A stretch of DNA of 28,411 bases, from positions 1-28,411 of the IMG/VR virus record IMGVR_UViG_3300045988_034311; one strand, 5' to 3'. This document shows positions 4,482 through 27,996 of the stretch, piece after piece (within the stretch, counting starts at the first letter, position 1; each line of letters starts with the position of its first letter). This stretch comes from a virus. The notes under the pieces are model-generated. The model had not been told where the DNA came from and made no database searches. It saw nothing but the letters and a program-made list of their open reading frames with translations. Both the position numbers and the translations under genes were made by a program.

Positions 4482-4871
4482 ATGAGCAACGTAACCCGAG
4501 ACGCGCACGGCAGAATCACCGGAGGCGTAAACAATCCGACCGGAAAAGGCGGCTTCCAAGAACGCCCGCAAGACCGAGGCACTTGGACAAAAGACACCAG
4601 CCCAACCCGATGGATAAGGGAATACGGGAAACTCTCCGCCAAGGAATTCGCTGAGAAAGCCAAAGACCCGAGCTTGACCATGATCCAACGTATCGCAGTC
4701 AAACACATTCTTGACGCGGAGAAGAACCCGAAAGTCGCTACCGACCTGATCGACCGTTTGGACGGTAAGCCCCACCAGTCCACCGACGTGAACGTGACCG
4801 GCTACGAGCCGCCACGCATCGTGTTGGAACCATTCGACGATAACCCCGAAAACAAGAAAGACGGTGAATAA
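4482..4871 (+). CDS. terS: Putative terminase small subunit
   Basis: It sits just upstream of the large terminase. The Gly/basic N-terminus (NPTGKGGFQERPQDRGTW) and DLIDRLDGKP resemble small-terminase sequences. No strong RBS. Confidence 0.5.
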   Translation: MSNVTRDAHGRITGGVNNPTGKGGFQERPQDRGTWTKDTSPTRWIREYGKLSAKEFAEKAKDPSLTMIQRIAVKHILDAEKNPKVATDLIDRLDGKPHQSTDVNVTGYEPPRIVLEPFDDNPENKKDGE

Positions 4872-16347: not shown

Positions 16348-17241
16348 ATGGCTATCTTCACTCTTGACCCGCGCGACGTTCGTCTGACCCTGAACGGGTT
16401 CCCCTTGTATGGGACTGACTCATACGGGTGCGAGTGGCACGTGACGTTTCAGAATGTTTCGGGCTTGTTCGACGGCGTTGGTTCGACCTTGCAGACCAAG
16501 GACAAAGCGTGGTCTGACGGTTGGTTCAGCAATATCCCCGTGGCTCAGGGGCGTTCAATCTCCATTGAAGGCCATATCATCGGCAAATGCACGGAAAACT
16601 GCATCAACGCTTGGGATGCGTTCAAGCGTGCGTTCAACATCACCAGCCAGTCGCTTGTAGTGCAATTGGGGAACATCAGCCGTCAGGTGCAGGTCATGCA
16701 ATCGTCTTCCGCTCCATTGGTGGAGTGGGCTGGTGTCAACATTCTCAAATTCAGTATCGGCCTGACCGCTTTGGACTCGTATCTTTACGATACGCAGTCC
16801 GTGAGCGGCAATACCGGGTTGCCGCGCAGTCAGGGCGGTATGACGTTCCCCTATCACTTCGAGAACATCGACACGGGCACGGGTTCAACGTGGGTATGGT
16901 CTGGAACAACAGTGTCGGGTAGCGTGCGCCTCACGAACACGGGTAGCGCTCCGAGTCCGGTGACGATTCGTATCGACGGGCCTGTGGTGAACCCTCAGGT
17001 TGAGCATAGTCCGAGCGGGCACATCATGGCGTTCGACCTCAGTTTGGGCGATGGCCACTATATCCTTATCAACGGCGACACCCACGAGATTCTTATCGAT
17101 GGCACCGACCCTGCGCGTGGCAGTGTGACCCGACGCGAATGGAGCTACGCGGAGATCGGGGAGAACATCTGGATGTTCAGCGCCGAGGGACCCTCGGATA
17201 ACGCGCGTATGTCGGTCACGTTCAATCCCGCTTACATTTAA
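16348..17241 (+). CDS. Distal tail protein (Dit-like)
   Basis: It immediately follows the tape measure gene. 297 aa with a siphovirus tail-family-like N-terminus. Confidence 0.6.
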   Translation: MAIFTLDPRDVRLTLNGFPLYGTDSYGCEWHVTFQNVSGLFDGVGSTLQTKDKAWSDGWFSNIPVAQGRSISIEGHIIGKCTENCINAWDAFKRAFNITSQSLVVQLGNISRQVQVMQSSSAPLVEWAGVNILKFSIGLTALDSYLYDTQSVSGNTGLPRSQGGMTFPYHFENIDTGTGSTWVWSGTTVSGSVRLTNTGSAPSPVTIRIDGPVVNPQVEHSPSGHIMAFDLSLGDGHYILINGDTHEILIDGTDPARGSVTRREWSYAEIGENIWMFSAEGPSDNARMSVTFNPAYI

Positions 17242-19086: not shown

Positions 19087-19111
19087 GTGTAGACGATTCG
19101 GAGGATTGATT

Positions 19112-19990
19112 ATGGCTATCATCATGCACCCGCTTACCGCTAAGAACGGTTCCCCGGAGTATACTGCGGACGATTACCGTCACGCCATCAACCCTCTATT
19201 AGTTCCGTCTGATGGTAGCGCGTTCAACGGGTTGTCTGGTATCCGTTACGGTTCCCCGAGTCCTCTGGTCACGGTGAGCGGTCTGACCGTTACGGTCAAA
19301 CCTCATTGCGGTACTATCAGCCCGTGGGATGGTCTCGGCGCGTACACTTACGCCATCACCACCAATACGACCGTGAAACTCGCAAACTCCACCAATAGTT
19401 ACAAGGTTGCGGTTACTGTGGAAGACCCCTCGCAGTCTCATGGTACGACTCCGCGCGGAAAGATAGAAGTGTTCCCTGCTGGTACGCCTGACTCGAATAT
19501 CAACGGTCTGGTGATTGCCAAGGTTAACGCCGGGGTCGCGTCGGATACGGCTCCGATGATTCGTAATAACGCGGTTCTGATGGCGCGTGATCTTACCCAG
19601 CTCAACACCATTGACGCGGTGGACGGGCAGGAGGCTATTACGATGGCCGATAATGCCCATTATGTAAGAAACGACAATGCGTGGGAGTCGTCCGATACTC
19701 CGCAGGAAATGATTGTCTTCGCTCACTCAAAGGTTATCAGACGGTCGAGCTCTACGCAGAACCCAGAACTATACTCTGCGAGTGAATTGGAAACTCTCGC
19801 GCAACAGCACGGCGTCACCGGGAATCTTAATAACCCGTGTGTAAGTGTTATGAACGGAGACTGGAATACTACTAGCATCTGGATTAACGGGGTCATGAGA
19901 CAGAACAACACTATCGTACTTAGTCTCAGTAATACACTGAATGCCAATACGCCGCTACGAGTCAACTCTCTCATAGGGTTCGCGCAGTAA
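19112..19990 (+). CDS. Minor tail / candidate receptor-binding protein
   Basis: RBS GGAGGA lies 6 nt before ATG 19112. It is the last tail gene before the lysis cassette. 292 aa. Confidence 0.5.
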   Translation: MAIIMHPLTAKNGSPEYTADDYRHAINPLLVPSDGSAFNGLSGIRYGSPSPLVTVSGLTVTVKPHCGTISPWDGLGAYTYAITTNTTVKLANSTNSYKVAVTVEDPSQSHGTTPRGKIEVFPAGTPDSNINGLVIAKVNAGVASDTAPMIRNNAVLMARDLTQLNTIDAVDGQEAITMADNAHYVRNDNAWESSDTPQEMIVFAHSKVIRRSSSTQNPELYSASELETLAQQHGVTGNLNNPCVSVMNGDWNTTSIWINGVMRQNNTIVLSLSNTLNANTPLRVNSLIGFAQ

Positions 19991-20582: not shown

Positions 20583-20714
20583 ATGAGACGTTTCAAACGG
20601 TGTGTGATCCTTGCATTGTTACTCGCCGCCGTCTCGTTGATAGTCCACGTCCTGATAACGGCCTACGCCGTTTTATACATGGCGTGGCTAGTCTTCTACA
20701 CAATCAGCCTATAG
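20583..20714 (+). CDS. Small hydrophobic protein (43 aa)
   Basis: Hand translation: [43 protein letters not shown]. It ends 11 nt before the endolysin start. The RBS is weak. Confidence 0.35.
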
Positions 20715-20725
20715 GAGGAATTTCG

Positions 20726-21883
20726 ATGGCTTTGAACGGTATCGACATCAGCAATTGGCAGGCTGGTATCGACCTGTCTGCCGTACCTTGTGATTTCGTC
20801 ATCAGCAAGGCGACGGAAGGATGCTGGTACGTGTCAGCGGATTGCGCTCGACAAGTGGAGCAGGCGTTAAGTCTGGGAAAGTGCGTGGGCGTATACCATT
20901 ACGCCAACGGAGGTAACGCCATCTCCGAAGCCGACTACTTCGTGAACAATTGCGCGAATTGGGTCGGCAAAGTCGTATGGTGCTTGGACTGGGAAGCACA
21001 GGGTAACGGACTGTTCGGGTCTGGCGCGTCTGCACAGCAGTGGATTAGATCGTTCTGCGATCGCGTGTACGAGCGTACAGGCTCCCAGCCTATCGTCTAC
21101 GTGCAAGCGTCGATGCTTAGCGACGTTCAGAACATTGGCGATCGTGGATTGTGGGTGGCTCAGTACGCGAATATGAACGCTACGGGGTATCAGGATACGC
21201 CGTGGAACGAGGGCGCGTATGCGTGCGCGATCCGCCAGTATTCGTCCAATGGACGCCTACCCGGATACTCAGGCAGTCTTGACCTCGACAAGTTCTATGG
21301 TGACGTGAACGCTTGGAACGCATATAAGGCGGGTCATTCGAGTGTGACCAACGTGCCGACACCTTCCACTCCCGCTCCGTCCACTCCCGCTTCAGGCACG
21401 TACACCGTGCGCTCCGGTGACACGCTGAGCGGTATCGCGTCGATGTATGGGACTAGCTGGCAGGTGCTGGCGCAGATCAATAATCTGTCTAACCCGAATC
21501 TGATTTATCCGGGGCAGGTGCTGAAGATCAATGGCACCGCCAATACTGTCCAGCCCGGTAGCGGCACGTATACGGTGCAGTCGGGGGACACGTTGAGCGG
21601 TATCGCCGCCAAGTACGGGACTTCGTGGCAGACCCTCCAGCAGCTTAACGGTATTGCCGACCCGAATCTGATCTATCCGGGTCAGGTGCTGAAAGTGCCG
21701 GGCGGTGCACCGTCCCCGTCCGTTACACCGGCACCGTCCGTTACAACGTACACTATCCAGCCCGGTGACACGTTGAGCGGTATCGCCGCAGCGTACGGTA
21801 CCAGTGTTTCCAGTCTGGTGGCGTTGAACGGTATCGCCAATCCTGATGTGATCTACGCTGGCCAGACGATTCGCGTCAAGTAG
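20726..21883 (+). CDS. Endolysin: GH25 muramidase plus three LysM repeats
   Basis: RBS AGGAGG lies 7 nt before ATG 20726. The N-terminus [13 protein letters not shown]...FVISKATEG...GVYHY...LDWE...LDLDKFYG is GH25-like. Three copies of [18 protein letters not shown]...N......IYPGQVLK are present. Confidence 0.9.
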
Positions 21884-21905: not shown

Positions 21906-22181
21906 ATGAGTATTGATACTGGTGAACCGGTCAAGGACACCGTGATTACCAACGAGGTGCCGGACGGTAATGATGATTACGTGCCGACGTTTAACGCCGC
22001 GACTCGCAAGTGGGCGTATCTGGTTTCCGGTCTGGTTGGTATCGCCGGTGCGGTGCTGAGTTTCGTGAGCGCCGTGCCGGACGTGCCGTCATGGGTGGCC
22101 GTGATGGGTGGCGCTTGCGCTCTAATCGGCTCCGGCGTGGCTGGCATGTTCGGCGTCCACTACGCAGGCATCTCCAAGTGA
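21906..22181 (+). CDS. Holin (two TM segments)
   Basis: RBS AGGAGG. 91 aa with two hydrophobic helices (WAYLVSGLVGIAGAVLSFVSAV and WVAVMGGACALIGSGVAGMFGV). It lies directly after the endolysin. Confidence 0.65.
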   Translation: MSIDTGEPVKDTVITNEVPDGNDDYVPTFNAATRKWAYLVSGLVGIAGAVLSFVSAVPDVPSWVAVMGGACALIGSGVAGMFGVHYAGISK

Positions 22182-22189
22182 GGTAAATT

Positions 22190-23495
22190 ATGACAATCGC
22201 ATCCGACTTGTTCCGCACTATCACCGTTAAGATCAACGACATCAGTCAGCAACTCCCCTAGATCGTTGTCAATCAGGCGGATGATAACGGCAAGATCATT
22301 CGTTTCGTCCCAATGGATCACGGGCAGAAAGTCACTGGGTTCACCGGCGCTCGCCTGTATTATCCTCCACGCTCTGACAACCAGTATGGTGATTACGTGA
22401 CCGGTGTCGAGTCTGACGGTGCTTGGGACTTCACTATTCCCGTGGGAGTCTTGAGTGTGGGACGGGTCGGATGCAACCTCGCTTTCATCGACGGGGACGG
22501 CGAGACGTATTCCCGTAATGTCGTGTTTCTGGTCGAACCCGCAGTGTCTGGTGTTTTCGACCCGGAGGATGGTCAGCAAACCCGTATCGACAAGATCATC
22601 GGCACAGTGCAGGATACCGCTGATACGGTTATCAGAAGCGTTAACAAAACCGCTAGTGACGCTGTGGAAAGCATCAGTAAGGCCGAGCAATCCATTAACG
22701 AGAGTGTGACGGCTGCGCGTGGTTCAGCTAATGCCGCAGCGAACAGTGAATAACAGGCGTCCGCTTCCGCTAGCGCGGCGCAAACCAGTGAACGGAACGC
22801 CGCCAATAGTGCCACGCAAGCCTCGCAGTCCGCTACGGCGGCGAAGCAAAGCAAGGATAACGCGGCAGAGAGTGAACGGAACGCCGCATCGAGCGAACGG
22901 AACGCCGCATCGAGCGAACGGAACGCCGCATCGAGCGCCGAACAGGCTGCTAATATTGTTGCGTCTGTTTCCGGTTCCGTCACTCAGGCCGAAAACGCCG
23001 CACGGTCGGCTTCGCAATCTGCGAGGGCTGCGGCTGGTAGTGCGAGCGAGGCCGGTGTGAGTGCTCAAGCTGCGGCTGATAGTGCGAGCGAGGCCGGAGA
23101 GAGCGCGACTGCCGCGAAGGTTTCGGAGACGAATGCCGCGTCCTCGGCTTCCGCCGCGAAGGTTTCCGAGACCAATGCGGCCGATTCGGCCACTGCCGCT
23201 CAACAGGCCGTGGAAGGCTTCGGTCTGGAGGTCGGCACGACGACCACGGGCGAACCGGGAACGGATGCCGCGGTCGAGGAGCGTGTCGGCAAGCTCGAAG
23301 CGGGCGGTGTGGAGCCGGGGCGAACCCGAGGAGCCCGCGGATGAATGGCCGGAATGGGTGCGCCCCACCAGCAAGGACACGCAGTACCATAAGGGCGACA
23401 AGGTGATGTTCAACGGGCGGCACTACGTGTGCCAGAAGAATAACGTCAGCTCGTCGCCGGACGAGGATGCGAAGCGCTGGACGCTCGTGGAGTGA
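22190..23495 (+). pseudogene. Disrupted BppU-N-like / Ala-Ser coiled-coil / CBM5_12-like fibre protein gene
   Basis: One frame runs from ATG 22190 (RBS GAGG) to 23344 but holds TAG at 22259..22261 and TAA at 22751..22753. The BppU-N-like motif (ITVKINDISQQLP*IVVNQADDNGKIIRFVPMDHGQKVTGFTG) spans the TAG. The C-terminal W..W....YHKGDKVMFNGRHYVCQ......P......W module is in the +1 frame, and the join is at the G4 run 23317..23320. Confidence 0.6.
22871..22933 (+). repeat. 21-bp tandem repeat x3 (encodes SERNAAS x3)
   Basis: agtgaacggaacgccgcatcg at 22871..22891, and agcgaacggaacgccgcatcg at 22892..22912 and 22913..22933. A partial copy lies at 22787..22804. Confidence 0.9.
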
Positions 23496-23559
23496 CAGCC
23501 GGTAACACGTAACCTCGTGGTAGACTGTTATTGCTCCTTTCGAGCGATGGTGTGATGAC

Positions 23560-23602
23560 CGAAAATAAAAGAAAACGGCACCGGTGTTGATCGGGGTGCC
23601 GT
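23560..23602 (-). terminator. Rho-independent terminator for the leftward operon
   Basis: acggcacc (23575..23582) pairs with ggtgccgt (23595..23602). On the minus strand this is followed by the U-rich tract complementary to gaaaataaaagaaa. Confidence 0.6.
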
Positions 23603-23609
23603 ATTCTCG

Positions 23610-23647
23610 CCCGGCACTGGTCTTGATGACTGGTGCCGGGTTCTTTT
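23610..23647 (+). terminator. Rho-independent terminator for the rightward operon
   Basis: cccggcac...gtgccggg is an imperfect hairpin (23610..23640), followed by ttctttt. Confidence 0.6.
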
Positions 23648-24665: not shown

Positions 24666-24708
24666 AATGTGATATATATATTATATCACATTGTTTGTGT
24701 TTCGCCAA
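24666..24708 (-). promoter_or_regulatory. Leftward promoter with a 27-bp palindrome (aatgtgatata-tatat-tatatcacatt)
   Basis: Minus strand reads TTGGCG (24708..24703), a 17-nt spacer, TG-A-TATAAT (24688..24680), then ATATATATCA. The perfect 11-bp inverted arms are 24666..24676 and 24682..24692. Confidence 0.55.
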
Positions 24709-27955: not shown

Positions 27956-27996
27956 TGATATATAAAGTATATCACATGTTGTGTGTGATATTACAA
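27956..27996 (-). promoter_or_regulatory. Leftward promoter upstream of erf, member of the conserved family
   Basis: Minus strand reads TTGTAA (27996..27991), a 19-nt spacer, TG-A-TATACT (27974..27966), then TTATATATCA. Extra TGTGAT half-sites lie at 27951..27956 and 27984..27989. Confidence 0.45.

Follow-up and report, generated by a model that had tools for sequence, protein, structure and literature searches.

The 28,411-nt viral contig IMGVR_UViG_3300045988_034311 (the window, meaning the whole stretch analysed) carries at positions 22190-23495, downstream of its lysis genes, a fibre-like reading frame that is interrupted by two stop codons and a shift of frame. We consider this region to be a pseudogene, left over from an accessory cassette of two genes that closed the late operon of a small siphovirus, probably one infecting Bifidobacteriaceae, and assign this explanation a probability of about 85%. 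The first gene, as preserved in relatives, encodes a putative side fibre of 400-780 aa, composed of an immunoglobulin (Ig)-like anchor, an Ala/Ser/Gln-rich helical stalk of variable length, and interchangeable distal receptor-binding modules. The second encodes a separate protein of approximately 144 aa ending in a CBM5_12-like module. Loss of the sequence between two 12-nt microhomology copies joined the first gene in frame to the final third of the second and destroyed both, and the chimera also contains an amber codon at Tyr24, an ochre codon at Gln188, and one additional G. Translation would then yield a peptide of at most 23 aa and no fibre, and the phage presumably adsorbs by its core tail tip, as would the approximately 75% of its relatives that have no fibre gene.

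The features of the pseudogene are as follows.

22190 (ATG), plus strand: start of the fibre pseudogene, with a Shine-Dalgarno-like GAGG at 22180-22183, read from the sequence; the ATG is retained in relatives and in their scar open reading frames (ORFs).
22190..22609, plus strand: putative N-terminal virion-anchor domain (codons 1-140), a predicted Ig-like beta-sandwich, broken by the TAG at codon 24.
22259..22261, plus strand: lesion 1, TAG at an invariant Tyr codon, from a DNA alignment with 18 relatives.
22610..23266, plus strand: Ala/Ser/Gln-rich alpha-helical stalk with 7-/14-residue (21-/42-nt) repeats, from Tandem Repeats Finder (TRF), repeat families D1-D3, and the helix predicted by AlphaFold2 (AF2).
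22751..22753, plus strand: lesion 2, TAA at the Gln188 codon, where relatives have CAA/CAG (DNA alignment).
23267..23278, plus strand: deletion junction with the 12-nt microhomology GCCGCGGTCGAG (AAVE), present in both the fibre gene and the small gene.
23279..23495, plus strand: 3' remnant of the small gene, comprising the end of a coiled coil and the CBM5_12-like module, with the original TGA at 23493-23495.
23317..23320, plus strand: lesion 3, a run of four G's (G4) compared to G3 in contigs L014 and L017, a +1 insertion (DNA alignment).

In the frame that opens at ATG 22190, the TAG at 22259-22261 is codon 24, the TAA at 22751-22753 is codon 188, and the frame closes at TGA 23342-23344. 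After the G run at 23317-23320, the +1 frame reads ...EPEEPADEWPEWVRP...TLVE and a stop (...EPEEPADEWPEWVRPTSKDTQYHKGDKVMFNGRHYVCQKNNVSSSPDEDAKRWTLVE and a stop), with its end at 23495. Translation thus confirmed all three lesions at the positions given in the first-pass annotation, which had been made from the letters alone and had derived both stops from Gln codons by a C-to-T change. This origin held for TAA 22751, opposite which the relatives have a Gln codon. Opposite TAG 22259, TAC or TAT (Tyr) was found in 18 of 18 IMG/VR relatives, and Y24 was invariant or nearly so in alignments of 120 proteins. Since all relatives encode Tyr at this position, the amber codon represents a C/T-to-G transversion and not a C-to-T change from CAG. 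The proposed surplus of one G was borne out by the nearest relatives: the window reads GCCGGGGCG, whereas L014 and L017, the two relatives that share its sequence type at the G run, read GCC-GGGCG (GCCGGGCG), indicating a 1-nt insertion. This additional G shifts the CBM remnant from the fibre frame, which closes at TGA 23342-23344. The three lesions were identical in the window as deposited in JGI-IMG (28,411 nt) and in the ENA contigs L022 and L023 (28,347 and 28,390 nt). The source sample is ENA SAMEA3664923, with assemblies ERZ28662012 and ERZ27261271.

The region had been read initially as a single gene with three native parts, of which the last was the sugar-binding module. Comparison to relatives showed that this module was not part of the ancestral fibre gene. 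In L011, L016, L017, and L019, and likewise in the Logan contigs L126-L129, it forms the C terminus of a separate gene of approximately 144 codons located just 3' of the fibre stop (MFETFQTI..GGYDL..RIKTLYAMGELTEDEMKQLL ... EERLSKL ... PGEPEEPADKWPEY...). This small gene was intact in approximately 57 holin-anchored loci. Separate initiation of all three segments in relatives had been named as a finding that would speak against a broken gene; anchor and stalk form one gene there, whereas the module does belong to a separate, conserved gene. The window remnant at 23279..23495 is 87-88% identical to the C terminus of the small gene of L017 and L014.

At the junction, the fibre side is represented by L090 (..GGATGCCGCGGTTGAGATTGAG..), the small-gene side by L039 and L014 (..ATGGCCGCGGTCGAGGAGCGTGTC..), and the window reads ..GGATGCCGCGGTCGAGGAGCGTGTC... 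It passes from AAVE to ERVGKLEAGG..., corresponding to ...RIAAVEERVGKLEAGG... of the small gene; GCCGCGGTYGAG is common to both parents and occurs in one copy in the window. The sequence missing between the microhomology copies comprises the distal domains of the fibre, that is, its receptor-binding end, and approximately 85 N-terminal codons of the small gene. Because the CBM module belongs to a separate gene and both parents share the junction microhomology, the window allele is a deletion chimera. The fusion itself preserves the reading frame, and the three point lesions are superimposed on it. Searches with exact and fully degenerate (all-synonymous) patterns detected the window junction in no further contig of IMG/VR or the JGI metagenomes. 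A different, intact in-frame fusion of fibre and CBM was found in protein P0074 (298 aa; junction between AAAN and ANQDAMLPD), and deletions of this kind therefore recur. In addition, L013 contains at 4634-4843 an ORF that begins MADISTG... and is joined to the last 35 or so residues of the CBM module.

The assignment of the module to CBM_5_12 (PF02839) proved weaker than first proposed. The window copy scored 19.2 bits, below the gathering cut-off of 26.2, whereas intact relatives scored 26.2 and 25.2, at or just under it; precomputed Pfam labels intact small-gene copies CBM_5_12 (weak). The C-terminal residues, approximately 40 with the pattern W..W....Y..GD.V.FNG..Y.C, fit CBM5/12 modules. 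Unlike these, the window copy is a frameshifted fragment without the N-terminal half of its gene. The intact small protein matches PHROG 18593, which is annotated as of unknown function. An XkdX-like N terminus was considered for it and found support in neither Pfam nor PHROG.

To compare the locus among relatives, we anchored a census on the holin gene, which is neutral as to the state of the fibre gene. Its boundaries are as follows.

21906..22181, plus strand: intact holin-like gene of 91 aa, census anchor, whose 3' end ..TCCAAGTGA forms the left cassette boundary.
23496..23563, plus strand: right cassette boundary, where the holin 3' end recurs in degenerate form before the conserved anchor TTGCTCCTTTCGAGCGATGG (relatives ..CTCCAAGTGATAGACTGG..).

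We retrieved 74 IMG/VR loci, in all of which the holin was intact and 81-99% identical; 71 were informative, and the counts below refer to these metagenomic loci without phylogenetic correction. The fibre gene was absent in 53 of them. In 9, including L025, whose holin is 99% identical to that of the window, the cassette was wholly missing, and the holin TGA was joined directly to the sequence found at window position 23517. Approximately 44 loci retained only a scar ORF of 13-17 codons followed by an intact small gene. The scars were of two types, M(M)TIA joined to LLEVNQAIMQGA and a stop (approximately 31 loci) and MMTIASDLFR joined to QGA and a stop (approximately 11 loci). In each, the opening codons of a fibre gene are joined to its closing ones, and the two types thus represent two separate, near-complete fibre deletions. 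The scar ORFs (L032-L095, approximately 42 loci) lie approximately 10-60 nt past the holin stop and keep the start and stop of the fibre gene just 5' of the small-gene ATG; they may preserve translational coupling to the small gene.

The remaining 18 loci kept the fibre gene, and 12 of these 18 alleles were disrupted by stops, frameshifts, or deletions of their own. Intact-looking loci comprised three long forms (L080, L090, and L091) and three short forms. Stops were located at codon 7 (L055), codon 21 (TAA in L086 and TAG in L072), codons 91 and 109 (L046), Q256 (L075 and L097), and in the tail of a short form (L063). Frameshifts occurred in L026, L040, L071, L081, L086, and L072, and L078 carried an out-of-frame deletion into the small gene. 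Other sequencing runs contributed a TAG at codon 20 (ERR14022635), a frameshift by extension of T3 to T4 (+T; ERR11478529, contig L129), and a stop at Q252 that was present in two runs (ERR12340435 and ERR12540974) and in a protein cluster with 37 member sequences (P0083). Overall, at least four independent deletion events or types affected the fibre region. Five alleles carry a nonsense codon within the first 24 codons, at codons 7 (L055), 20 (L126), 21 (L086), 21 (L072), and 24 (window, 22259). Q20, Q21, and Y24 are the sole Gln or Tyr codons there that are one step from a stop, and the clustering in codons 7-24 may simply reflect the mutational target.

Genes flanking the fibre gene behaved differently. 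Ten of them, drawn from three tail genes, a 128-aa gene, the endolysin, the holin, the small gene, HNH, HTH, and two further early genes, were stop-free and in a single frame in the same loci, with at most 1 internal stop in approximately 150 copies. Apparent stops in the endolysin lay 5' of its real start or in secondary LysM alignments. Since 12 of 18 fibre alleles were disrupted compared to approximately 1 of 150 flanking copies (Fisher P of about 1e-13), the damage is specific to the fibre gene. The sole possible flanking lesion is one internal stop in the homologue of 18382-19086 in L009 (IMG/VR 3300029647_000008), aligned by tblastn at 79% coverage.

Relatives display every stage of loss: intact genes, genes with independent lesions, scar ORFs, and sites that lack the cassette altogether. 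Among the explanations offered at first, a decaying accessory adhesin is the only one that this series supports. The comparison of 71 genomes indicates that the fibre gene is dispensable, and the complete-looking genomes and the recurrence of loss across sequencing runs suggest that fibre-minus phages are viable. The suspicion that a position after the lysis genes is unusual was not upheld; this is the normal site of the cassette throughout the family. Empty sites equal exactly the loss of sequence between the two copies of TCCAAGTGA, which suggests that the cassette may be gained or lost through recombination at the holin 3'-end duplication. The degenerate copy reads, for example, ATCTACACTGGCGCCTCCAAGTGA, encoding IYTGASK and a stop compared to HYAGISK and a stop in the holin (window 23496-23563; L041 5780-5850; L025 5265-5300).

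A search of 5.8 billion proteins yielded more than 600 relatives of the fibre gene, the best 80-88% identical, with lengths of 250-780 aa and located on contigs of approximately 30-34 kb. Intact alleles include L003/L090, L005/L091, and L011/L080. The N-terminal domain of the window is 93-97% identical to intact homologues. For a close homologue, AF2 with a 30-sequence alignment predicted strands at residues 25-115, with a predicted local distance difference test (pLDDT) score of 60-80 in the sandwich and a mean of 70, followed by a single long helix at 133-250 (pLDDT of 85-92). The domain family appears narrow, with 44 matches at E values of 0.001 or less among 1.84 billion representatives. 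Across alleles, the ratio of nonsynonymous to synonymous substitution rates (dN/dS) in this domain was approximately 0.08 at a dS of approximately 0.45, and that of the window allele was not raised. Since a value of approximately 0.08 reflects long-term purifying selection, the inactivations are recent, and they have recurred. The pairwise ratio is uninformative about relaxed constraint on the window allele because the old divergence (dS of 0.45) swamps the terminal branch.

The repeats of 7 and 14 residues reported for the stalk were real. Tandem units of 21 nt (3.8 copies at 22859-22937) and 42 nt (2.2 copies at 23108-23199) were detected by TRF, and PHROG tail-fibre families match residues of approximately 140-345, that is, the stalk. 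The 21-nt SERNAAS repeat at 22859-22937 is present in 3.8 copies in the window and L022 and is one unit shorter in L023, which may be either real copy-number variation or a difference between assemblers. The stalk ends with the TTTTGEPGTDAAVE motif, which in relatives stands before the distal receptor-binding part. There, ...GTDAAVE is followed by IQKxGTKYTANFTIPRGDKGE... and then by one of several interchangeable distal modules. By inference, the ancestral product would be a side fibre attached to the baseplate, in which a coiled-coil stalk carried exchangeable distal modules. A common short form (L007/L028, L013/L068, and L014/L039; proteins P0079-P0119 of 301 or 308 aa) ends with ...AAGERVFYAYPYPPDSGCCVIEYPAFLGYNGNTGVYINLETEE and a stop. 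It is followed by a second ORF that starts with MADISTGRQRGIVPFVDETTGRLPDQYLP... and runs on into fibre-like stalk sequence. The arrangement resembles a single fibre divided between two genes, with a docking domain that contains Cys.

Several observations weigh against pseudogenization by decay. Three disabling point lesions stand beside few private missense changes and a normal dN/dS, and this excess over simple neutral decay hints at selection for inactivation, truncation in a certain order, or errors of calling. The G4 run may have been miscalled in the consensus, all three lesion-bearing assemblies may come from a single sample, and some frameshifts in metagenome-assembled relatives could be errors from the assembly of strain mixtures. 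Chimeras of the P0074 type may be functional, and the window version may have worked before it was hit.

One possibility, to which we give somewhat less than an even chance, refines the pseudogene explanation: the fibre may be a 'disposable' adsorption organelle whose knock-outs are repeatedly favoured in the gut, while the gene persists via other lineages. It would account for the many independent types of lesion in a gene otherwise under strong purifying selection, for the wide occurrence of lesion alleles such as the Q252 stop, for the number of independent deletions, and for the excess of disabling hits in the window over the expectation from its missense background. Relaxed constraint acting on a Gln-rich target, in which CAA and CAG are one transition from a stop, could nevertheless produce this pattern too. 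Moreover, in a sample without phylogenetic correction, common descent or recombination may account for some of the lesions found in more than one locus, such as the Q256 stop in L075 and L097.

An experimental precedent exists in phage lambda, whose side fibres are rapidly lost in structured medium: stf mutations were found in 19 of 21 large-plaque clones, 15 of them frameshifts (PMC2762979). Gallet, Shao and Wang raised in 2009 the question of how common 'disposable' fibres are (PMC2762979), and the family of the window looks, by analogy, like a natural case. Like lambda stf, which is intact in Ur-lambda and frameshifted in laboratory lambda, the gene encodes a putative accessory fibre that appears dispensable for infection, stands beside a small companion gene, and is inactivated by frameshifts and point mutations in an otherwise undamaged genome. 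Recurrent loss of this kind was found here, with disrupted alleles, several types of deletion, and intact flanking genes. The likeness is one of behaviour; sequence homology between the two was neither found nor looked for. The host of the window phage is probably an actinobacterial Gram-positive bacterium, the gene lies 3' of the lysis cassette and not by a tail-tip gene, and loss was seen in natural metagenomes and includes clean deletions and fusion to a neighbouring gene. By position only, the gene may also be likened to that of the neck passage structure (nps) of phage TP901-1, which is annotated as a fibre-like structural gene beside holin and lysin, outside the tail module. The nps of TP901-1 is reported to be non-essential for infection. 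Its product is a collar or whisker where head and tail meet; the protein discussed here would more likely have been located on the baseplate.

More tentatively still, the side fibre may be under fluctuating selection in a very common human-gut phage family, with loss actively favoured and knocked-out lineages circulating widely. If so, the drivers could be the cost of adsorption in structured or mucus habitats, decoy binding, or escape from a fibre-sensing host defence, and the multiple hits in the window could reflect stepwise selection against making a harmful truncated anchor.

An artefact of sequencing or assembly is improbable. It would imply that the true phage has an intact 434-aa chimera, or an intact fibre gene and small gene, with the stops and the additional G contributed by a minority variant or by errors. 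Taken alone, the G4 run is a classic type of error, and if the three lesion-bearing contigs are re-assemblies of one sample, their difference of one 21-nt unit is such as assemblers would give. Two substitution stops in non-repetitive sequence are, on the other hand, atypical of short-read assembly, and the same lesions recurred in three assemblies. An intact allele or junction was absent from the 5.8 billion proteins, IMG/VR, and JGI metagenomes, and many relatives from other runs carry analogous lesions.

Recoding is less probable again. The chimera is in frame if all three lesions are bypassed, so that suppression or readthrough of the amber and ochre codons and a +1 ribosomal frameshift at the G run could produce a 434-aa adhesin at low level; L075, L097, and L126-L128 each have a single in-frame stop in an otherwise open gene, and dN/dS is not raised in lesion-bearing alleles. 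The pairwise ratio, as noted, is dominated by old divergence and blind to a recent loss of constraint. Suppression had been among the initial proposals, and the genome gave it no support. The 28.4 kb examined, out of a genome of approximately 28.4-30 kb, yielded no tRNA, and signs of stop-codon reassignment were missing in the window, with no suppressor tRNA and no avoidance of TAG or TAA. Its genes end with TGA (21), TAA (9), or TAG (6), and the latter two are thus ordinary terminators of 15 other genes. In-frame stops were confined to the fibre gene and of two kinds, and their codons differ among relatives (7, 20, 21, 24, 91, 109, 188, 252, and 256). The residue lost at the TAG is an invariant Tyr. 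The G run, three G's long in relatives, shows no conserved slippery or stimulatory motif, and relatives also carry frameshifts and large deletions, most being without the gene.

Phase variation, in which the G run or further short tracts would slip reversibly and so switch the fibre on and off, had likewise been suggested at first and is the least probable explanation: one lesion is a single-base homopolymer change, L129 has a T3-to-T4 frameshift, and loss-of-function mutations of lambda stf fall mainly at homonucleotide runs (PMC2762979), but the run has only 4 nt and is G3 or different sequence in relatives, two upstream nonsense codons keep the gene off, the receptor-binding part is deleted, and no invertase or shufflon lies nearby. 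A Rin-type shufflon, as in Bifidobacterium prophages, was also considered and ruled out, there being no recombinase and no inverted cassettes downstream; no inverted repeats suitable for a Rin/Min/Cin-type system were detected, and the downstream sequence consists of a terminator and the early genes HNH, HTH_3, YqaJ, and ERF.

With the pseudogene explanation, the region should be annotated as a pseudogene or chimeric remnant. To label it an adhesin subject to recoding or phase variation, or to count the CBM fragment as part of the fibre, would be incorrect. For most of the family, host ranges predicted from this fibre would be mistaken. The window is a fresh example of an already known type of event, and the family-wide pattern is the more useful result. 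The natural series of intact, point-inactivated, fused, scarred, and empty loci could serve to test the idea of a disposable side fibre, developed for lambda, in gut phages of an important commensal group.

We also evaluated the proposal that the N-terminal domain is BppU-N-like, and it was retained in a weakened form. The window domain gave no match to Pfam BppU_N (PF10651) up to an E value of 10. A 49%-identical relative, P0134, gave a full-length match below threshold (E value of 0.008; 16.3 bits compared to a cut-off of 23.1). In hhalign, the family profile aligned with ORF48 of the Lactococcus phage TP901-1 (BppU) in register, columns 12-121 against 8-126, with an E value of 0.0024 and a probability of 12%. 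A PDB sequence search returned five matches at E values of 10 or less, among them the ORF48 structures 3uh8 (E value of 0.18) and 4v96 (E value of 1). Foldseek with a model of the domain retrieved generic Ig/FN3/PKD folds only and did not single out BppU. These signals are consistent with each other, and all are below significance (E values of 0.0024-1); they provide a lead to a possible relationship with BppU_N rather than membership. As in TP901-1 BppU, an N-terminal beta-sandwich of approximately 120-140 aa, here predicted at a pLDDT of only 60-80, would precede a helical linker and open an adhesion protein attached to the baseplate. In TP901-1, BppU belongs to a Dit-Tal-BppU-BppL module, whereas the gene in the window lies outside the baseplate module, 3' of endolysin and holin (Dit is at 16348-17241), and no BppL-type partner was seen.

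Other genes of the window encode TerL, a portal-MuF fusion, a capsid protein, the tape measure protein, Dit, further tail proteins, a GH25-LysM endolysin, and the holin. The rightward late operon ends beyond the cassette, as follows.

23609..23641, plus strand: intrinsic terminator of the rightward late operon, with a 14-bp stem and a T run.

Beyond the terminator, the leftward early genes include HNH, HTH_3, YqaJ-like, and ERF. No homologue of the region or of the repaired protein was found in cultured phages by megablast and tblastn, and no prophage copy of the fibre was found in GTDB representative genomes. A scan of GTDB with the endolysin gave distant relatives only, the best in Alloscardovia (48%). 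TerL is 50% identical to that of the Bifidobacterium asteroides phages BlindUri1 and BlindBasel1, which is the sole link to those phages. The host is likely a member of the Bifidobacteriaceae.

Intergenic sequence of the leftward early arm contains, at 24667-24700 and 27956-27986, two copies of an AT-rich repeat of 31 nt that includes a palindrome (TGATATATA..TATATCACAT); both are candidates for operators or promoters. Phages with the same holin or fibre exchange endolysin modules: the window endolysin (20600-21883) contains GH25 and three LysM domains, that of L126-L128 contains Amidase_2, and in L001-L006 and L012 the catalytic domain is a different one, with only the LysM tail in common. 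Finally, the 294-aa tail protein encoded at 19106-19990 aligns over only approximately 66% of its length in most relatives and has a variable C terminus. With the side fibre dead, this protein is the likelier core determinant of host range.

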